NCBI GenBank assembly: GCA_019694515.1
Contig: JAIBBU010000010.1
Location: 35,496-99,495 of the forward strand
Direction: 5' to 3'
From: Oligoflexia bacterium
GTDB lineage: Bacteria; Bdellovibrionota_C; UBA2361; JBGSMV01
DNA: 64,000 nucleotides
This document shows positions 19,066-35,684 of this stretch, piece after piece. Every line of letters starts with the position of its first letter. Position 1 is the first letter of the stretch. Made by a program: the position numbers and the translations under genes. The notes under the pieces are model-generated. The model saw nothing but the letters and a program-made list of their open reading frames with translations, did not search any database and was not told where the DNA came from.

Positions 19066-21147
19066 CTAAGCGCTGGCTTGCTCCTCGCCGCGGCGGGTCA
19101 CCAGCTTTTCCTGCAGATGACTTGGCACATCTTGATAGTGACTGACACTCATGGTGAAGGTGCCTTGGCCTGAGGTCAAAGTCCCCAGGATCGCCCCGTA
19201 TTCAAGGAGTTCGACCATTGGCACCTGTGCTTCAATCTCTTGCGCGCCCTCGGTCGCATTGAGATTCTGCACCCGCCCGCGGCGTGATGATAAATCCTTA
19301 AGTACCTCACCGGTATACTGGTCCGGAACAATCACATCCAAGGCCATGATCGGTTCGAGCAGCACCGGATGTGCCTGCTCATAGGCCAGCTTCATCGCGA
19401 TCGCACCCGCGGTTTGAAACGCGTAATCCGACGAATCGACCTGGTGGTATGATCCGTCGTAAACCGCGACCTTCAGATCTGTCACCGGGGAACCGTTCAG
19501 TGGGCCACGCAACAACGACTCTTCGACGCCCTTCTTGATCGATCCGATATACTGGCGGGGAATCGCGCCACCGGTGACAAGATCGACAAACTCGAATCCG
19601 GAATTACGGGGCAGAGGAGTAACCTCAATGAAGCAGTTGGCAAATTGCCCGTGACCGCCGGTCTGCTTTTTGAGTTTGCCCTGCACCTTCACGGCCTTCG
19701 AGAGCGTCTCCCGGTATGGAACCTTGGGCGCTCTTAAGCGCGCCTTACCGCCATATTTTCTGGTCAAGCGCTCTAATGCAATGTCGATATGGGTCTGTCC
19801 CATGCCTGAAAGGATCATTTCGTGGGTCTGACCATCCCGATAAAGATGTAGAGTCGGATCTTCTTCAGCCAAGCGCGCTAGGCCGGCTGCTACTTTCTCT
19901 TCACTCTTGGGATCCTGGGCCTCGACTGCGTACATGATCGGGGCCTCGGCATACTTCACCTGCGGATATCGGAGGGCATTGTCGACATCACACAACGTAT
20001 CGCCGGTGGAGGTTTCATTCATCTTGGCAATTGCTCCAATCTGGCCGGCATACAATCTTTCGGTGGCCTCCAGCTTTGCGCCCTGCACCAAATAGAGGTG
20101 ACCTGAACGCTGCTCCGTCTGTTGCGTAGCATTGAGCATGCGCTGATGGGGCGCGAGTGTGCCCGATATTACGCGTACCATCGAAAGCTTTCCGGAGAAT
20201 TGATCGATCACTGTTTTTAACACGATCGCCGAGAAGGGGATTTCTGGATCGCAGCGCCGCACTTCGGTCCGTTCGGCGTCGCCTAACGCAACACCTTGGA
20301 ATGGGCGTGTGGCATCTCGATCTGGAGGCGAGGGCAAATAGTGGACAATCGCTTCCATCAGCGCCTCGATTCCGGAATTAGCGAGCGCCGAACCGCATAG
20401 GACCGGAATAAATTCTCGCGCAATTACGGAGCGTCTTAGAGCCTGCTCGATCTCCTCAATGCTGAGCTCTTCGCCTCCAAGATATTTCTCTAACAGAGCC
20501 TCGTCGTTCTCGACCACCTTTTCGACCAATTGGGTACGGAGTCGGGTGACCTCGCTCAATAAATGCCCCGGGATTTCGCAGGGAGCAGAGCGGCCATCGC
20601 GGGTGCTCCAGGCTTTCATTCTAATCAGATCGACGATCCCCAGCTCTTGAGGTCCGGTGCGAATCGGAATCACGATCGGCTGTGCGCTGGCATGCAGCTG
20701 ATCCCGGGTGCTTTGGATAGCATGCATGAAATCACTTTCCGGAAGATCGGTATGACTCATGAAGGCGATCACCGGCAGCTCCTGCTCTTCCAGCATCTTC
20801 CAGAGACGCACGGTCTCCGGTTTGACGCCATCCACCCCCGAAATCACCAAAACAGCGCCATCGGCGCCGGGGAGCACGCCCCGGGTGCCTTCTAAGAAGT
20901 TAAAATAGCCCGGCGTATCGATAATGTTGATAGTGTGATCTTTCCAATCAAAATGTCCGACGTGCGGGGTGATGGCGATCTTGTGCGCCACCTCCTCCGG
21001 CTCCACCCGCATGACAGCCGCACGCTCTTCCAGCGAATTAATGGCATGCGCCTGAAAAAGCAGCGCCTGAATTAGCGCCGTTTTACCAGCTCCGCCATGC
21101 GCAATCATGGCGACATTCCTTGTATTTTCTGCTCTGATTGGGTCCAT
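19066..21147 (-). CDS. Divergent elongation factor G-like translational GTPase (EF-G paralogue)
   Basis: 693 aa with the five-domain EF-G layout. P-loop AHGGAGKT. Switch II reads DTPGYFNF rather than DTPGH(V/M)DF, and the NKxD G4 motif is degraded to SHTD. It sits 3 nt downstream of the sigma-54 activator gene on the same strand. Confidence 0.85.
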   Translation of the reverse strand: MDPIRAENTRNVAMIAHGGAGKTALIQALLFQAHAINSLEERAAVMRVEPEEVAHKIAITPHVGHFDWKDHTINIIDTPGYFNFLEGTRGVLPGADGAVLVISGVDGVKPETVRLWKMLEEQELPVIAFMSHTDLPESDFMHAIQSTRDQLHASAQPIVIPIRTGPQELGIVDLIRMKAWSTRDGRSAPCEIPGHLLSEVTRLRTQLVEKVVENDEALLEKYLGGEELSIEEIEQALRRSVIAREFIPVLCGSALANSGIEALMEAIVHYLPSPPDRDATRPFQGVALGDAERTEVRRCDPEIPFSAIVLKTVIDQFSGKLSMVRVISGTLAPHQRMLNATQQTEQRSGHLYLVQGAKLEATERLYAGQIGAIAKMNETSTGDTLCDVDNALRYPQVKYAEAPIMYAVEAQDPKSEEKVAAGLARLAEEDPTLHLYRDGQTHEMILSGMGQTHIDIALERLTRKYGGKARLRAPKVPYRETLSKAVKVQGKLKKQTGGHGQFANCFIEVTPLPRNSGFEFVDLVTGGAIPRQYIGSIKKGVEESLLRGPLNGSPVTDLKVAVYDGSYHQVDSSDYAFQTAGAIAMKLAYEQAHPVLLEPIMALDVIVPDQYTGEVLKDLSSRRGRVQNLNATEGAQEIEAQVPMVELLEYGAILGTLTSGQGTFTMSVSHYQDVPSHLQEKLVTRRGEEQASA

Positions 21148-21149
21148 CT

Positions 21150-22181
21150 TCAGTGCTCCATTTTTGAGTTGTGATTAGCTAAACCATATCTATTCAATTT
21201 CTTCCAAAGCGTGACGCGGCTAAATCCCAACATTGCCGCTGCTTTGGTTTTGTTGCCGTCACTGGCTTCCAGTGCGTCAAGAATCGCGAGCTTCTCTTCC
21301 TCTACCGGGATAGCGTGACTAGATCGATAGTGCTGGCGTTCGACGCGCTGACTGAGGCCGGCAGGGTCGGAATGACTAAGTAAGTCGGGCAGGTGCTGCA
21401 TCTCGATTGCGCCGCTCTTTGCGATCACAAAGGCGTGCTCAAGTGCATTCTCAAGCTCGCGCACGTTGCCGGGCCATTGGTATTGCTCGAAGAGCTTTGC
21501 TACTTCGTCTGATAATCCGGTGATCGATTTTGAAAATCGCTGATTGAATTTAGAGATGAAATAGCTGCTTAGAGCCAGGATATCCTGCGAGCGGTTGCGC
21601 AATGGGGGAATACGTAAGGGGAATACATTGATGCGGTAATAGAAATCCTCCCGAATTCTTCCTCGCGCCACGAGATCTTCGAGGTGGCGATTGGTGGCGG
21701 TAATGATCCGAATGTCGGCCTTGCGGGTCAGCGCTTCGCCTACGCGAGAATATTCGTGGGATTGCAGGAGCCGGAGTAATTTTACCTGCATGTCCGGAGA
21801 GACATCTCCAATCTCATCCAGGAATATCGTACCGTCATGTGCATATTCCACGATGCCCTGCTGATCACGATGTGCATCAGTGAACGCGCCCTTAACGTGG
21901 CCGAATAGCGTGCTCTCCAGCAGGTTATGAGGGATGGTGGAGCAGTTGACCTTGGCGAATCGCCCCGCGCGCCTACCGCTCAAGTGGTGGATGGCATCAG
22001 CTACGAGTTCTTTGCCGACCCCGCTCTCGCCGTAGATGTGCACAGTTACATCCGTCGGCGCGACTAACCCGATTAATTCATAAAGATGCATCATTAAGGG
22101 GTGTGATCCGATCAGACGGTGAAATCTGTACGGAGGCTGGGACTCAAGACTGGCGGGTTGGTCGGGCATAACGGGCGGCAT
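21150..22181 (-). CDS. Sigma-54-dependent transcriptional activator of PspF/HrpS type (AAA+ sigma-54 interaction domain plus C-terminal Fis-type HTH; no N-terminal sensor or receiver domain)
   Basis: Walker A GESGVGKE, the ESTLFGHVKGAFTDA (GAFTGA-type) loop, Walker B IFLDEIGD, and the C-terminal HTH LGFSRVTLWKKLNRYGL. The protein begins about 25 residues before the AAA+ core. Confidence 0.9.
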   Translation of the reverse strand: MPPVMPDQPASLESQPPYRFHRLIGSHPLMMHLYELIGLVAPTDVTVHIYGESGVGKELVADAIHHLSGRRAGRFAKVNCSTIPHNLLESTLFGHVKGAFTDAHRDQQGIVEYAHDGTIFLDEIGDVSPDMQVKLLRLLQSHEYSRVGEALTRKADIRIITATNRHLEDLVARGRIREDFYYRINVFPLRIPPLRNRSQDILALSSYFISKFNQRFSKSITGLSDEVAKLFEQYQWPGNVRELENALEHAFVIAKSGAIEMQHLPDLLSHSDPAGLSQRVERQHYRSSHAIPVEEEKLAILDALEASDGNKTKAAAMLGFSRVTLWKKLNRYGLANHNSKMEH

Positions 22182-22492: not shown

Positions 22493-22576
22493 GTCCTAGA
22501 CCACGGACTCTGGGTGGTTCGTCCTGGGGCTAATCCTAGAATCCTATTTTAATCCATCTTTGGATTGGAGAATCGT

Positions 22577-23023
22577 ATGGAATTCTTCCCCAGCATTCTT
22601 CCGGAAACTCGTTCGACATTGTTTGCTCAGCCATTCCGCGCGCTAGAGGAGGCCGTGAATAAAATGTGGCCGGCCTTTAATGCTCTGGGCCAGGTGGTGC
22701 CGCGAACATTTGCATTAGACGTGGAAGAACTGCCTGACAAGTATCGGATTAAGGCCGATTTGCCAGGAATTGATCGAAAATGTGTCCATATTTCATTCGA
22801 GCAGCCAATGCTGACGATTGAAATTGAAGTCAATAAAGAGGAGGAAAGAAAAGAGGGCACTTTCTTGGCTCGCGAGAGACTGTACAGCACAACCGCGCGT
22901 TCGATTCCGCTGCCCCTCGCAGATGCGAAAGGCAATGTCGATGCGGTGATGAAGGAAGGAGTGCTAACAATTACTGTCCCCAAGAGCCACGAGAAGCAGA
23001 CCAAGACGATTGAAATACACTAG
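22577..23023 (+). CDS. Hsp20/alpha-crystallin family small heat-shock protein
   Basis: Alpha-crystallin domain (DVEELPDKYRIKADLPGIDRKCVHISFEQPMLTIEIE...GVLTITVPK). GGAGAA lies 5 nt upstream of the ATG at 22577. Confidence 0.85.
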   Translation: MEFFPSILPETRSTLFAQPFRALEEAVNKMWPAFNALGQVVPRTFALDVEELPDKYRIKADLPGIDRKCVHISFEQPMLTIEIEVNKEEERKEGTFLARERLYSTTARSIPLPLADAKGNVDAVMKEGVLTITVPKSHEKQTKTIEIH

Positions 23024-25209: not shown

Positions 25210-26982
25210 TTACAGTCGGCCTTGATCTTTGCTCTCCCCTCGCAAAATCTGCAGCGCTTTGCGGGTAAGAAGATCTAGGAGATCGTTAGAACTACCGGGA
25301 TTACCAGGCTGTTGGCGCTCCTCGGCGGCTCCGAGAAGAATTCGCGCATGCATCCGTGCCCAGCGGATCTTCTCGGGGGTATGGCAATAGTCGAGCGCGC
25401 TCTGTAGTTCGCTGTTTTCTTCCAGCCGAATTGCGCCTTTTGCCAATTTCTCACGATCGCAATTTTCCCAGGCGCGAAGAATTCTATAGGTTAAAAGATC
25501 CTCAACCTGACGGGGACTGAGGCCGGCGCGCTGCTGCTGGATCTGTTCCGTAAGTTCTCGGTAATTTACCCCCGGCCCATCAAAGAAGATCAGGATGTCA
25601 TTCAAGAGCGTTTCGCGGCGCATGGCGCGGTACTCGTCAGAATCGATTCCCGGCAGATCGGTCTCTTTAATGCGTGAGGGCAGGCTTGCTTCCTCCTGCA
25701 GCACTGATTGCCCGGCAGTTGAGGTTGCTGTATTGCGGCCGCCGCTGCTCTGTGTCGCTGTTGCTGTGGGCCTTGCACTGCGGAGGCCAGCAGCATCGCC
25801 TCGATTTGGATCGCCGCCGGTCGCCTGATCTGGAGATGGATCGCCGGATTCTTGTTGCCGCTGTCTGCGGCGGAGCAGAAATAACAAGCCTAAGGGAATC
25901 GGATAGAGAGCTTTGGAGTCGTGATCGACATGTCCCTGCACCGTCGCATCGACTCGGCGTTTCGAGTAAATTATTTCTGCTAACTCTCGATTCAGCTCGG
26001 GATCCTTAATGCGACCAGCGCAATAGGCTTTAACCATAGTGAAGATGCGCTCGTCCTCGGTTGCGCCGCTGTAGTCCATGGAGAGTTCAGTCAGGCGGCC
26101 CCAATCCTCGTCCGAGAAACCCAGCTCCCTCCCAATCACTCGAACCCGCATGGGGCTGCTCTCTTGCAGCGCATTCATGATGCGCTTCGCGGCATCGTCC
26201 CCCCGCAGAGCCCCCAGGTCTTCGTTCTCTGGGTCAGATTCCGACAAGCTCTCAGGGCCCAAAGCGGCTGGCCCTTCTGGTGACGCGTTTCCTACGGCGG
26301 TAAGCGAATCTACGGTTGAGTCATGAAGAAGTTCTGGTCCATGCGCGCGGCGATAAGCAGCCTTAGCCCAGTCGAAGCCATGCAGTTCATCTGCAACCTG
26401 GTGCAGCAGCTGTGCGCGCACGTCGGCGGCAAAGCGGTCGTGATCTTCGGGGCGCAGTGAGCGCGCCAGATCAAACTGACGTGCGTATTCGTAGGGAATT
26501 GTGAATGTACTTTCATAGCGCTGGGTCTTATGCGAAACGGTAACCAAGCTTATCGGACAAACTGCGCTCCAGAGATCGTGAAGTGCGACATGGTAGCGCC
26601 CGGTTGCAGGATCGCGCTCGATGATGTTGACGTTGATCTCTGGGAATTTGGCCTTGGCTCCCGCCGTCGAATCCAATCCTGCGGATTCCGGAAGCGTCAG
26701 CTCAACTCCCCATTTGGTCTTGAGGTCGACAAGCGAGGGGCCTGAAGCGTGAGCACGCAGCGGTGAATCGGCAGCGTGGGCAGCTATGATTGCAGGGTCC
26801 GCCTCCGCGGTTTTCGGGTGAGCTATAGCAGCAAGTAAACCAACGATCTTGGCGATGGCGCGGAAGCGCTCCGCGATGGATTGCGGCGGACCGCCAATTA
26901 CATTTAGATCTGGTGCGGCCTCGGTGTTTGAAATGAGCCGAGCTGTATCAGAACTGGGATCTTTAGGGCCATGGCCTGCCAT
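25210..26982 (-). CDS. Large hypothetical protein (about 590 aa) with a Gly/Ser/Thr/Pro-rich disordered segment and one central hydrophobic stretch; no recognised domain
   Basis: Start moved to the ATG at 26982 (GAAAGGAGctccgcATGGCAGGCCATGGC, a strong RBS). It is transcribed divergently from the RiPP precursor gene. Confidence 0.6.
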   Translation of the reverse strand: MAGHGPKDPSSDTARLISNTEAAPDLNVIGGPPQSIAERFRAIAKIVGLLAAIAHPKTAEADPAIIAAHAADSPLRAHASGPSLVDLKTKWGVELTLPESAGLDSTAGAKAKFPEINVNIIERDPATGRYHVALHDLWSAVCPISLVTVSHKTQRYESTFTIPYEYARQFDLARSLRPEDHDRFAADVRAQLLHQVADELHGFDWAKAAYRRAHGPELLHDSTVDSLTAVGNASPEGPAALGPESLSESDPENEDLGALRGDDAAKRIMNALQESSPMRVRVIGRELGFSDEDWGRLTELSMDYSGATEDERIFTMVKAYCAGRIKDPELNRELAEIIYSKRRVDATVQGHVDHDSKALYPIPLGLLFLLRRRQRQQESGDPSPDQATGGDPNRGDAAGLRSARPTATATQSSGGRNTATSTAGQSVLQEEASLPSRIKETDLPGIDSDEYRAMRRETLLNDILIFFDGPGVNYRELTEQIQQQRAGLSPRQVEDLLTYRILRAWENCDREKLAKGAIRLEENSELQSALDYCHTPEKIRWARMHARILLGAAEERQQPGNPGSSNDLLDLLTRKALQILRGESKDQGRL

Positions 26983-27252
26983 GCGGAGCTCCTTTCGTGA
27001 GACTGAACTAGGGAACGCTGCGGGCCACTCATCCAAAGTGGTCGCTTTTAGACGCTGCCTACCTTCGTTATGGAGAACCGCAGCTCTCCGTAGCATAAGG
27101 GCGCAGGGGGATTTACCTGGGGATCCCATAAAAAATCGCGCCGTATTTTCATTTTGCAGTGCCCGACAATGTGTTAGTTAAACGGCTTAACATTTGCTCC
27201 GGGAACTGAAACAAGGTTTGCGGGGCCAGCTCAAAACCTTTTTGGAGGCTTA

Positions 27253-27642
27253 ATGAAGAAGAACCGTAATTTATCGAACCTTTCGAAAGCATCACTGGCC
27301 CTCGGAGCAGTGGCGGGTCTAAGGCTAGCAGACGCCCACGCTATGCAGAGCTTTGACTATCACATGCTGGGTAGCGGCGCTGTCGTCCGGGGCGAGCTGC
27401 TGGAAAAGGCTGCTAATCCCGTTTACGCGGCGCATGAGGACGCGGAGGACGGCGAAGCCGGGTCCGGAAAGACGGTTGAAGGAAACTGCGGCGAAGGCAA
27501 GGAAAAATCGGCGGAAGCTAACTGCGGCGAAGGGAAGGATAAGGCCAAGAAGGAGCATGAGGCCGATCAGCATAAAGATAAGTCGAAGGATGCCGAAGGC
27601 AAGTGCGGTGAGGGCAAATGCGGCGAAGAGATGGATATGTAG
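27253..27642 (+). CDS. HvfA/bufferin-like RiPP precursor: small Sec-signal-peptide protein with Cys repeats NCGEGK, NCGEGK and KCGEGKCGEE
   Basis: 129 aa. Signal peptide MKKNRNLSNLSKASLALGAVAGLRLADAHA (AxA cleavage site). The mature part is Lys/Glu/Asp-rich with four Cys, all in (E)GKCG / NCGEG context. GGAGG RBS. It lies immediately upstream of the DUF692 and DUF2063 genes. Confidence 0.7.
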   Translation: MKKNRNLSNLSKASLALGAVAGLRLADAHAMQSFDYHMLGSGAVVRGELLEKAANPVYAAHEDAEDGEAGSGKTVEGNCGEGKEKSAEANCGEGKDKAKKEHEADQHKDKSKDAEGKCGEGKCGEEMDM

Positions 27643-27681
27643 CCTTTATCTGAGTCTCGGGGAGGCCTCCTCCCTGAGACA

Positions 27682-28530
27682 TTGGGAGAAATCATGCCAG
27701 CCGTAAGCGGAGTAGGGATTGGACTGCGTCGTGATTTGGCCGATGAAATCATTGCGCTAGAGAACAGTCCGATTCGTTTTCTGGAATGCGCCCCGGAGAA
27801 CTGGATGGGGGTCGGTGGATATTGGGGGAAAAAGCTGCGGCAAGCTGCTGAACATTATCCCTTCAACTGTCACGGACTGTCGCTCTCTCTGGGGAGCCCC
27901 GAGCCGCTCGATCATATCTTCTTGCAGCGGCTAAAGAAATTCTTTGCCGACTTTCCGGTGCAGATCTACTCCGAGCATCTGAGTTTCACCAAATGCGACA
28001 ACGCTCATACCTATGAGCTGCTGCCGATGCCCTTTCGTTCTGACGCGGTGCGTCATGTAGCGGGCCGCATTCGAGAGGTGCAAGAGATTTTGGAACGGCA
28101 GATCGCGATTGAAAATGTTTCTTACTACACCCCGGTAGCTCCCGAGCTGGGCGAGGCTGAATTCATCGCGGCGATTCTCAAAGAAGCCGACTGCAAGCTG
28201 CTGCTGGATGTGAACAATGTGTTCGTGAATGCCTTTAATCACGGCTATGATGCGCGCGGCTTCATCTCGGCCTTGCCCCTCGATCGTGTTGCTTACATCC
28301 ATATGGCGGGCCACGAGCAGCGCACTCCGGATCTGATTATTGATACGCATGGCGAGCCGATTATCGATCCGGTCTATGAACTTTTTGAGTGGACGATTGA
28401 GCGTTTACACCCCGTGCCGGTGCTCCTGGAGCGTGATTATAACTTCCCGGAGTTTCCGGATTTACTAGCAGAAGTTTCGAGGTTGCAAGCGATTGCTTCC
28501 AAAGTTTGGCACCAACAGGCGGCGGCTTAA
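27682..28530 (+). CDS. DUF692-family multinuclear non-heme iron oxidase (MNIO; MbnB/TglH/HvfB/BufB family RiPP maturase)
   Basis: GVGIGLRRDL, the SEHLSF motif, ENVSYY, LLLDVNNVFVNAFNHGYDA, IHMAGH and IDTHG are all hallmark DUF692 motifs in the correct order. Confidence 0.9.
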   Translation: MGEIMPAVSGVGIGLRRDLADEIIALENSPIRFLECAPENWMGVGGYWGKKLRQAAEHYPFNCHGLSLSLGSPEPLDHIFLQRLKKFFADFPVQIYSEHLSFTKCDNAHTYELLPMPFRSDAVRHVAGRIREVQEILERQIAIENVSYYTPVAPELGEAEFIAAILKEADCKLLLDVNNVFVNAFNHGYDARGFISALPLDRVAYIHMAGHEQRTPDLIIDTHGEPIIDPVYELFEWTIERLHPVPVLLERDYNFPEFPDLLAEVSRLQAIASKVWHQQAAA

Positions 28531-28532
28531 AA

Positions 28533-29294
28533 ATGGCGCTTGAAAAGAATACCACCGAAGTGATGCGTGAATTTGCGCAGTTTTGCCGCACTGGGGAGTA
28601 TCATCCGATCGCGGGGGTGCGGGACGATCGTGCCCAAGAGTATCGCCGTCTGGCATTCAATATCGTCGAGCACGCGTTGCGACGCGCATATCCTCTAACC
28701 GTCCGGGCGCTTGGAACGGAGTGGTCCGGGCTGATACAGCGCTTTTATGCCGAGTGGCCCCTGGTGAGTCCGGAGCTGTGGAAGATGCCGCGTCAGCTAT
28801 GTGATTTTGTCGGCGGCACGCAGTACGGTATGGCGACGGGGCGTCCCTGGCTTAATGACCTGCTACGTTTTGAGTGGTTGGAGATCGAGGTCTTCATGAT
28901 GGAGGATGTCGATCCTGGGGTGGTTAACGCCAAGGGGGATTTGGCCGGCCAGCCGGTAGTGCTGAATCAAGAGGTCGTTTTTTCGCGCTTTGAATATCCG
29001 GTCTTCAAAGTCGCAGCGGACCAGCTGACGGCACAGCAGGGCTGTTTTTTCCTGGCAACCTACCGTCATCCGCAAACACTAGAAGCTTGCTATACTGAGC
29101 TCTCGCTCTTATTCTTAAGGGTGCTTGAGATTCTGCAGATCCAGGAACTCTCCGGGAGTGCCGCGATCGAGCGAGCTGCTTCTGATTTGGGGATCGATCT
29201 GTCGGGCGGTGATGCGCGCCGCATGCTCGAGCTGCTCTCGGCTGCCCGGTCCGACGGTTTAATTTTAGGGGTAAGGAATGTTGATCTTCGCTAA
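28533..29294 (+). CDS. DUF2063-family partner protein of MNIO enzymes (MbnC/HvfC/BufC-like precursor-binding subunit)
   Basis: The start ATG lies 2 nt after the MNIO stop. DUF692 genes are characteristically followed by a DUF2063 gene. Sequence-level assignment is by context plus size, roughly 250 aa. Confidence 0.65.
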   Translation: MALEKNTTEVMREFAQFCRTGEYHPIAGVRDDRAQEYRRLAFNIVEHALRRAYPLTVRALGTEWSGLIQRFYAEWPLVSPELWKMPRQLCDFVGGTQYGMATGRPWLNDLLRFEWLEIEVFMMEDVDPGVVNAKGDLAGQPVVLNQEVVFSRFEYPVFKVAADQLTAQQGCFFLATYRHPQTLEACYTELSLLFLRVLEILQIQELSGSAAIERAASDLGIDLSGGDARRMLELLSAARSDGLILGVRNVDLR

Positions 29295-29628
29295 TTTGCT
29301 GCTGGCCATCGGCAAAGTTCTTGGAATGCTGCTCCAGATATTGCTTTATCTGGTGATTGCCCGTGCTATTATTTCCTGGGTCAACCCCGATCCTTATAAT
29401 CCGATCGTACGCTTTCTGCATTCATCGACCGATCCCTTTCTTCGACCGATTCGACGCTATGTACCATTGGTTGGCGGTGGCATCGATCTATCTCCGATCC
29501 TGTTGTTCGTGCTGATCATTTTCCTGCAATCCTTTTTGGTGCAAACCATGCTGGATTATTCGCTGTCGATCAGGAGCCGCTCGATTATGGTTCCGGCACC
29601 GGTAGCCGCCCCGGGATCTTTGACCTAG
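29278..29628 (+). CDS. YggT (Ycf19) family small membrane protein, translationally coupled to the DUF2063 gene
   Basis: ARAIISWVNPDPYNPIVRFLHSSTDPFLRPIRRYVPLVGGGIDLSPILLFVLIIFLQ matches the YggT consensus. It overlaps the upstream gene by 17 nt. Confidence 0.75.
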   Translation: MLIFANLLLAIGKVLGMLLQILLYLVIARAIISWVNPDPYNPIVRFLHSSTDPFLRPIRRYVPLVGGGIDLSPILLFVLIIFLQSFLVQTMLDYSLSIRSRSIMVPAPVAAPGSLT

Positions 29629-29707
29629 CGCTTAGCGGACGAGTTTTAAACCTTACACTTCAAGCATTTCGGCGCATATCCGTTGGGCTAATACAACGGA
29701 GAGTTAT

Positions 29708-30706
29708 ATGCAGCCCGAGACCGCCGTAGCACCTATACCAGATTCGCAAAATGTCTTTATCAGCGCCGCCGCGGGGGAAGAGGAAGTCTTAGCCGTCCCG
29801 CCTACCATAGACGGCCTCGATGTAAAGCGCTATCTAACCGAAATTGCGGGCCGTCACGGCCTGCTTGTCGATCCAGAGGTCGCGCTCAAAGAGACTGAGC
29901 GGCTCTTCAGTGCAATTGATCAGCCGATTGTGCGCGGAATTGTTTTGGAAGCGCTAGCACAGCGCAGTCCGGTACAATTTTATTGCCCGGCTGTTCGCGC
30001 CAAGTTTTTTGCCGCGCTTCAGCCGTATGCCGCAGATCCAGAGGTGCTGAATCTTGGAATTGAAACGCTGATGGGGGGCGATGAGCAGCCTGAGACAATT
30101 CAGGCTATCGAAAAAATCTTGAAGCAGGTCGATCTCTCCGAATTCCCGGCCTGCCAGGAGAAGTTGCATAATTGGCTGCTCCTTAATATCGCGCAGGCCC
30201 TGCCGGCGACTCTGCCTCCCACACTGGCAGCAGGATTTCGGGTAGCGGGTGGCGATGTCGAGGAGGGCGCGATCTCGAAGTCCCTGGTCGCTGCAGCTCT
30301 GCACTCTTACCGCCGCTTCCATGAGGAGACTGGATATGTGGAGGCGTTAAAGTGTCTCGGTACTCCGAAGTGCATGCGCACCTTAAGAGAAATGGCAGAG
30401 GAAACTATCTATCCCTATATGCATGAAAGCGGGCCTGCGCATCCTCCCGGCACATGCGAGACCGCGCTGCTTTTGGATATTGGTGCGGCGGTGACCGGAG
30501 GGGTCCTGGGCGGCGTTGCCACCTTTCACTTTGCATCACATCTCCCCTTCGCCGTCTTTCTTGGCGCGCTGGGTGGCCTAGTCGGCTTTACCCGTACGAG
30601 CGATTATCTGACCCATCGCTACATTATGGATCGGCCCACCAGAAAAGGACTAAATCCGGTGCAAAGCGCGAAAGCGCGCGAATTTTTGGAGAAGCCGGGA
30701 GATTAG
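29708..30706 (+). CDS. Hypothetical protein with a C-terminal double-TM/Gly-zipper segment (GAAVTGGVLGGVATFHFASHLPFAVFLGALGGLVG)
   Basis: 332-aa ORF with GGAGAG RBS. No recognised domain. Confidence 0.5.
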   Translation: MQPETAVAPIPDSQNVFISAAAGEEEVLAVPPTIDGLDVKRYLTEIAGRHGLLVDPEVALKETERLFSAIDQPIVRGIVLEALAQRSPVQFYCPAVRAKFFAALQPYAADPEVLNLGIETLMGGDEQPETIQAIEKILKQVDLSEFPACQEKLHNWLLLNIAQALPATLPPTLAAGFRVAGGDVEEGAISKSLVAAALHSYRRFHEETGYVEALKCLGTPKCMRTLREMAEETIYPYMHESGPAHPPGTCETALLLDIGAAVTGGVLGGVATFHFASHLPFAVFLGALGGLVGFTRTSDYLTHRYIMDRPTRKGLNPVQSAKAREFLEKPGD

Positions 30707-35339: not shown

Positions 35340-35684
35340 TTGCAATTTAGTCGATTGGTGGCAGCGGCTTCTAACACTTCGGAAAAATGGCTCTGGGAAG
35401 ATGGGGATAGGCTGTATATCGCACTTTCGGTCCAGCCGGGTGCGAAGCAAGACCGGGTCAAAGGGGTGCATGGTGAACGGCTGAAAATTGCGGTCAAGGC
35501 TCCGCCCCTGGAAGGGCGTGCTAATGAAGCGGTTGTGGAGTTTTTGGCGGCATTATTGCGGCTTCCAAAACGCGCGGTTTCAGTCCGCCATGGGGAAAGC
35601 AGCCGTGAGAAATTGATCGCTGTAACCGGTCTCACGCTGCAGGCAGCCGAACAGATCCTTAAGGCGCAATTTGAGTCAGTTTGA
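35340..35684 (+). CDS. DUF167 (YggU) family protein
   Basis: LSVQPGAKQDRVKGVHGERLKIAVKAPPLEGRANEAVVEFLAALLRLPKRAVSVRHGESSREKLIAV matches the YggU consensus. The exact start is uncertain. Confidence 0.7.
   Translation: MQFSRLVAAASNTSEKWLWEDGDRLYIALSVQPGAKQDRVKGVHGERLKIAVKAPPLEGRANEAVVEFLAALLRLPKRAVSVRHGESSREKLIAVTGLTLQAAEQILKAQFESV

Follow-up and report, generated by a model that had tools for sequence, protein, structure and literature searches.

A minimal hvfABC-type locus in an Oligoflexia genome and its probable Lys-Cys captophorin precursor with two Asn-Cys units

Described captophorins and their relation to the locus

HvfA (oxazolin) of nontypeable Haemophilus influenzae, the founding member of its family, was first reported to carry oxazolone/thioamide pairs on six Cys residues situated in AEGKCGEGKCG repeats, with one Cu(I) bound per heterocycle pair and with two unmodified Cys residues (Cys38-Cys43) that are disulfide-bonded (PMC11252979). 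The modification has since been reassigned by two groups to a 5-thiooxazole, with a signature of -4 Da per Cys and absorbance at 302-305 nm, and oxazolin, fontiphorin, gonophorin and the bufferins have been brought together under the name 'captophorins' (10.64898/2026.06.05.730506; PMC13097082). An oxazolone/thioamide reading of the chemistry is thus outdated. The names of the models NF050137 and NF050188 still say 'oxazolone/thioamide-modified' and, given the reassignment, automated annotation of the precursor gene would carry the outdated chemistry as well. Approximately 2,000 Buf_EGKCG/oxazolin precursors were counted in one survey (PMC12452194), and a survey by the Mitchell laboratory included 17 Bdellovibrionota clusters, four of them in Oligoflexia (PMC13097082 SI).

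The locus described here lies in a stretch of 64,000 nt from an Oligoflexia genome (contig JAIBBU010000010.1 of assembly GCA_019694515.1), which in its full length is referred to as the window. It comprises a precursor gene, a gene for a multinuclear non-heme iron-dependent oxidase (MNIO, DUF692) and a gene for a partner protein. With the hvf cluster it has in common an AEGKCGEGKCG-type motif and a maturase that passes the HvfB-family model. The peptide of the window has one Cys pair whereas HvfA has three, it lacks the N-terminal disulfide pair of HvfA, the locus is without the DoxX gene (HvfX) of the hvf cluster, and its MNIO is only 42% identical to HvfB.

The closest characterised enzyme is FonB of the fontiphorin system FonA/FonBC from Fontimonas thermophila (PMC13097082), with 50% identity to the MNIO of the window. 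These two systems have the EGKCG core in common, the Arg-Arg and catalytic Asp motifs of the enzyme are conserved between them, and the FonA leader VFQASDLGAGYMVAS aligns with the leader FDYHMLGSGAVVRGE of the window peptide. They differ in that all seven Lys-Cys sites of FonA occur in pairs or triples, whereas the window peptide has Asn-Cys singletons, and in that the window MNIO has Tyr in place of Phe250 of FonB. In the layout of the precursor, a parallel is found in gonophorin (NgoA/NgoBC) from Neisseria gonorrhoeae (PMC13097082), which has a Sec signal peptide, an adjacent MNIO (45% identical) and a DUF2063 partner, and in which N-terminal X-Cys-Gly singletons without a preceding Lys are followed by EGKCGEGKCG pairs, as in the window peptide. 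In NgoA, two EGKCGEGKCG pairs come after three (Q/E)GSCGA singletons, and seven of seven Cys are converted to 5-thiooxazole (PMC13097082 SI Fig. S18). The singletons are therefore Ser-Cys-Gly-Ala in NgoA as against Asn-Cys-Gly-Glu in the window peptide, which has four Cys and one pair only; NgoA also lacks the LGSG-type leader, and the ngo cluster has DoxX, unlike the window.

Also related are the bufferins (BufA1 with DUF2282, and BufA2), which like the product proposed for the window are Sec-exported copper-binding RiPPs with an MNIO-installed 5-thiooxazole, but the window peptide has no DUF2282 match and its MNIO lies below the BufB cutoff. Methanobactin is related through MbnB, a member of the same MNIO superfamily; the window MNIO falls far under the MbnB cutoff, and the methanobactin precursor MbnA consists of leader and core without a signal peptide, whereas one is predicted for the window precursor.

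We put a probability of roughly 85% on the reading that this is a minimal hvfABC-type captophorin cluster and that its precursor belongs to the Lys-Cys captophorins (the oxazolin/fontiphorin/gonophorin class), because the peptide passes the HvfA-family model and is followed by an HvfB-type MNIO gene and by a gene for a DUF2063/NGO1945_C protein. The same adjacent genes lend support to the proposal, made in a first-pass annotation of this DNA, of an HvfA-type MNIO substrate, which on these sequence grounds appears to be correct. The gene order and the family membership of the three proteins were computed here, as were the conservation of the motifs and the duplication behind the Asn-Cys units. 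If this reading is right, the locus is one more Oligoflexia example in a RiPP class with tens of thousands of predicted clusters.

The precursor gene and its peptide

The features of the precursor gene up to the end of its leader are as follows.

27244-27248, + strand: Shine-Dalgarno sequence GGAGG, with a 4-nt spacer to the ATG of the precursor gene (direct reading of the sequence)
27253-27642, + strand: hvfA-like gene, 129 aa, probable Lys-Cys captophorin precursor (ORF listing and NF050137)
27253-27342, + strand: predicted Sec signal peptide, residues 1-30, cleaved between AHA and MQ (charge, hydropathy and AxA rule; heuristic)
27352-27402, + strand: post-signal leader FDYHMLGSGAVVRGELL, residues 34-50, conserved in homologues

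The translated 129-aa peptide has an exact counterpart in an Oligoflexia MAG, K1X83_06960 (hypothetical protein), and agrees with the sequence quoted in the first-pass annotation. Against the NCBIfam HvfA-family model NF050137 it scored 35.4 bits (cutoff 19.5, E = 6e-9), with residues 109-126 as the best-matching stretch. Its score of 24.4 bits against the strict HvfA equivalog NF050188 is below the cutoff of 95, so it is to be regarded as a member of the HvfA family and not as an orthologue of H. influenzae HvfA (oxazolin). A search of the precursor against Pfam gave no match, and a six-frame motif scan of the window found no second precursor copy.

To place the peptide among its relatives, the 80 genome loci that hold the nearest relatives of the window MNIO (59-68% identity) were taken from Bacteroidota, Calditrichota, Chlorobiota/Ignavibacteria and Bdellovibrionales, and in these loci 78 distinct precursors were found directly upstream of the MNIO gene. 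The closest of the precursor relatives is not above 40% identity. Nearly all 78 have the leader motif F.Y..LGSG..VR..L, which is also present in the window peptide, and in an alignment of 20 homologues L39 and G42 of this leader are invariant. The conserved leader is presumed to be the region recognised by the partner protein. These uncharacterised hvfABC-like clusters of the FCB group and Bdellovibrionota resemble the window both in leader motif and in the gene order of precursor, hairpin, MNIO and partner. Three clade-level descriptions for FCB/Bdellovibrionota are obtained from the survey, namely the leader motif, the spectrum of residues at position -1 to Cys, and the hairpin between precursor and MNIO genes.

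The 129-aa frame, its ribosome-binding site, the family-model match and the 78 syntenic precursors together mark the ORF as real. It is very improbable that it is instead a low-complexity frame arisen by chance, or what is left of a pseudogene that has lost its expression or processing. Such a reading would fit with the database record, which says only hypothetical protein, and with the 123-nt gap upstream of the precursor, in which no sigma-70 promoter was recognisable. A scan upstream of the precursor gene for sigma-70 promoters and intrinsic terminators gave no convincing candidate, the counts being at the level of shuffled sequence. The chance or pseudogene reading is opposed by the strong Shine-Dalgarno sequence at the correct spacing, a family HMM score above cutoff, an intact frame with a predicted signal peptide and a conserved leader, a position upstream of the MNIO gene that is conserved in 78 relatives, and a GC3 value resembling that of the neighbouring gene.

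Cleavage of a signal peptide after ADAHA, as predicted earlier, was supported by heuristic means: the n-region carries four positive charges, residues ~13-24 are hydrophobic, A-H-A stands at -3/-1, and in the alignment this site falls in the region where the homologues have ANA/ASA/AKA-type sites, immediately before the conserved leader. The predicted mature part of 99 aa has a pI of 4.8 and contains 24 Asp+Glu, 13 Lys and 4 His (residues 37, 61, 102 and 108), which agrees with its earlier description as highly charged. An AlphaFold2 model of the precursor (20-sequence alignment) gave a mean pLDDT of 49.6, and its sole helix, of low confidence, spans residues 42-54 within the conserved leader. 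The model is consistent with a precursor that is essentially disordered, as expected of such RiPP precursors.

Maturase, partner protein and genomic neighbourhood

Downstream of the precursor gene, the following features were identified up to the end of a membrane protein gene.

27650-27685, + strand: strong stem-loop without a U-tract between precursor stop and MNIO start (MFE folding)
27694-28530, + strand: hvfB-like MNIO (DUF692) maturase gene, 278 aa from ATG (NF003818, PF05114)
28506-29294, + strand: hvfC-like partner gene (PME1: DUF2063 N-domain and NGO1945_C), start at TTG 28506 or ATG 28533
29278-29628, + strand: YggT-family membrane protein gene, overlapping the hvfC stop by 17 nt, with an alternative Met17 start at 29326

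The MNIO gene starts 52 nt after the precursor gene. Its product scored 379.3 bits against the HvfB equivalog NF003818 (cutoff 360) and 332 bits against PF05114, and was under cutoff for the BufB, ApyH, ChrH and MbnB models, with 274.9 bits against BufB model NF050167 (cutoff 310) and 39 bits against MbnB model TIGR04159 (cutoff 325). It also matches PDB entry 3bww, a DUF692 structure from Haemophilus somnus, at E = 1e-71. The enzyme keeps GIGLRRD as its RR motif and, in LLERD-Y, the motif of the catalytic base with the catalytic Asp. In FonB, selectivity is shaped by Arg15, Arg16 and Phe250, and the Arg-Arg pair acts in substrate gating (PMC13097082); at the position of Phe250 the window MNIO has Tyr, residue 249 (LLERDYNFP).

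For the partner protein, the scores against PF09836 (42.1 bits, threshold 27.2) and PF22106 (30 bits, threshold 27) are both above the gathering thresholds. Against the NCBIfam HvfC equivalog NF050145 it reached 99 bits, below the cutoff of 142, which makes it a divergent partner; its identity to FonC is 27%, and no PDB sequence match was obtained at E <= 0.01.

The chemistry, export order, copper stoichiometry and physiological role of the system can be proposed from its characterised relatives. By this analogy, the peptide would be made with a Sec signal peptide, then the conserved leader and a disordered charged core. In the cytoplasm, the HvfC-like DUF2063-type partner would bring it, via the conserved leader, to the HvfB-like MNIO, which with its iron cofactor and O2 would oxidise Cys and the carbonyl of the preceding residue to a 5-thiooxazole, with a change of -4 Da each. 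The product would be exported by Sec and its signal peptide cut after Ala30, and in the periplasm the thiooxazole thiolates and nitrogens would bind Cu(I). At roughly one Cu per two heterocycles, this would give up to ~2 Cu per peptide, or intermolecular networks might form. The likely role would be copper sequestration or stress protection.

The stem-loop between precursor and MNIO genes folds with an MFE of -29.6 kcal/mol over positions 27630-27700 (z = -3.1). When the 60 nt after each precursor stop were compared in the related loci (L001-L084), a comparable hairpin was found in 56 of 78 (z < -2; median MFE -18.75 kcal/mol), and several of these carry U-tracts. From this recurrence, an attenuator or stabiliser shared across the clade may be suspected, by which precursor transcripts would be kept in excess. 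An Rfam scan of positions 26800-29700 returned no RNA family at E <= 1.

The neighbourhood of the cluster is of a housekeeping nature, with genes for an EF-G-like GTPase, a sigma-54 activator, Hsp20, phosphomannose isomerase, acyl-CoA dehydrogenase and GrpE-DnaK-DnaJ. Several genes and ORFs around the cluster are given below in order of position.

19066-21147: EF-G-like GTPase gene, with the sigma-54 activator gene directly downstream
21150-22181, - strand: sigma-54 activator gene; the listed ORF has only AAA+ and Fis-type HTH domains, without a receiver or sensor domain
22565-23023, + strand: Hsp20 gene, divergent from the sigma-54 activator
25210-27129, - strand: 639-aa ORF, divergent from the precursor gene, with Pro/Ala/Gly/Ser-rich low-complexity stretches
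29708-30706, + strand: 332-aa ORF whose C-terminal region is hydrophobic

The 639-aa and 332-aa ORFs were considered as members of the cluster and rejected, since neither matched a Pfam or NCBIfam family or had a homologue in the related loci. Genes for DoxX, an ECF sigma factor or copper resistance were absent within about 13 kb (scan of the ORFs between 13.3 and 42 kb). Among the related loci, DoxX is present in 48 of 84 and was undetected in the remaining 36, and it therefore does not define HvfA-family clusters. Where it occurs, it holds the position that the YggT-family gene has in the window. None of the 84 related loci was found to have a YggT gene; replacement of DoxX by YggT was therefore rejected and the adjacency is treated as local. 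A YggU/DUF167 gene is situated at 35340-35684 of the window.

Cysteine sites and the histidine-containing spacer

The precursor has four Cys residues, as had been described: Cys79 in EGNCGEGK, Cys91 in EANCGEGK, and Cys118 and Cys123 in EGKCGEGKCG. The protein does not end directly after CGEE, as was also claimed, but three residues further on (...KCGEEMDM, then the stop). Nor is the presence of only four Cys noteworthy in itself, four being the modal count in the clade (23 of 78 precursors). The Cys sites are encoded as follows.

27468-27539, + strand: two tandem 36-nt units encoding KTVEGNCGEGKE and KSAEANCGEGKD, the Asn-Cys singletons Cys79 and Cys91 (repeat search)
27595-27624, + strand: paired canonical site EGKCGEGKCG, Cys118 and Cys123 (best stretch of the NF050137 match)

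Modification of the canonical pair is close to certain under the captophorin reading, and C118, G119, C123 and G124 are invariant in homologue alignment A2. The Asn-Cys sites require more consideration. It had been pointed out that Asn stands before two of the four Cys, and this holds for Cys79 and Cys91, but not as two independent sites: the units at 27468-27503 and 27504-27539 are 81% identical and arose by one 36-nt tandem duplication, so they are non-independent and count as one event. AAC encodes Asn in each unit, and a single transversion separates it from the Lys codons AAG/AAA. Judged from the sequence, the Asn-Cys state goes back to a single mutational event that was duplicated afterwards.

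Across the 413 Cys of the related precursors, the residue at -1 is K in 359 cases, S in 22, T in 13, A in 9, N in 6, E in 2, Q in 1 and G in 1. Singleton Cys lack a preceding Lys in 37 of 86 cases (43%), often having N, S, T or A instead, and all six Asn-Cys, which come from six related FCB-type loci, are singletons. In more distant relatives of gammaproteobacterial type (P0014, P0022, P0025 and P0027), EGNCGE units are likewise followed by terminal EGKCGEGKCG pairs, and P0014 lies directly upstream of genes for an MNIO, a 258-aa protein and DoxX, making it part of a bona fide MNIO/DoxX cluster. Non-Lys singletons followed by a terminal EGKCGEGKCG pair are, on the sequences compared, a recurrent layout in the family, found in NgoA too. 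The divergent core proposed at first is hence an overstatement, and the Asn-Cys sites are a recurring variation inside a described family and not a new one. A further HvfA-family precursor (P0026, L086 4001-4348, from a Woeseiaceae MAG) has EGNCGGDK, EGSCGGDK and EGACGGDK singletons; it adjoins an ECF sigma factor and DUF3379 anti-sigma pair and, with no MNIO gene within 3 kb downstream, appears as a stand-alone precursor gene.

Cys79 and Cys91 (E[GA]NCGEGK) are probable targets of the maturase, although with appreciably less assurance than the pair, in view of the Gly at +1, the Glu-Gly/Ala frame, the modified non-Lys singletons of gonophorin and the tolerance of FonBC. The latter accepts Ala, Arg and Thr at -1 to Cys and refuses Phe, Glu and Pro; it needs a small residue after Cys, and it once modified an NVCGG variant (PMC13097082). 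A somewhat unlikely alternative, with the same cluster and chemistry, is that modification is confined to the C-terminal EGKCGEGKCG pair, which would provide one Cu site, the Asn-Cys singletons being poor substrates or none. Cys79 and Cys91 would then lie in decayed half-repeats (EGKCGEGKCG to EGNCGEGK[ED]K) and would either keep their thiols free or be joined in a Cys79-Cys91 disulfide. Each Asn-Cys unit does resemble a double repeat minus its second Cys, Asn at -1 is rare in the related precursors (6/413), and a shortened substrate with a single EGKCG repeat was left unmodified by FonBC in vitro (PMC13097082). The two unmodified, disulfide-bonded Cys of HvfA offer a precedent; these, however, precede Val and not Gly, whereas Cys79 and Cys91 both lie in Cys-Gly-Glu-Gly-Lys. 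All three Ser-Cys-Gly singletons of NgoA are modified, position -1 is permissive in FonBC, and singleton X-Cys-Gly units recur family-wide, which argues for their retention by selection. With its single canonical pair and its two Asn-Cys singletons, the peptide could be of modest practical value as a compact natural substrate: it could serve to test Asn at -1 for HvfB-type MNIOs, a residue outside the published FonBC scans, and the need of singleton sites for a neighbouring half-repeat.

The spacer rich in His, Asp and Glu had been put forward as a source of further metal ligands. The His share of the mature peptide is 4.0% as compared with a family median of 0.7%, and in His content the precursor is second among 79 family members, only one of its 78 relatives being equally high. 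The spacer as a conserved ligand region was rejected: its His positions are conserved in neither homologue alignment A1 nor A2, and it is in total His content alone that the peptide is unusual. A metal-ligand role for these residues is speculation.

It is improbable, at a level well below that of modification limited to the pair, that the Asn-Cys sites, the acidic His spacers and the Tyr of the MNIO pocket mark a distinct subtype with another metal preference or with His/Asp/Glu/Asn ligands. Equally doubtful is its more specific form, an acidic, His-assisted Bdellovibrionota subtype in which the Asn-Cys-Gly singletons would become Asn-derived 5-thiooxazoles, whose carboxamide together with the His-rich acidic spacers would alter coordination or metal preference. 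Such a subtype would account for the high rank in His content, for a peptide that is acidic while most FCB/Bdellovibrionota relatives are Lys-rich and basic, and for the replacement of the FonB selectivity residue by Tyr. No homologue alignment, however, shows conservation of the His residues, and the idea that Tyr tracks Asn-Cys substrates was rejected: of 82 related FCB/Bdellovibrionota loci, 23 have Tyr, none of these 23 with Asn-Cys, and the six Asn-Cys substrates are all paired with Phe enzymes.

The single relative that matches the window peptide in His content is a precursor from a Bdellovibrionales-like MAG (L029 1256-1645), which has a His-rich stretch, THAAETHEGHEHDD, directly before the core, and this hints at a Bdellovibrionota-specific tendency.
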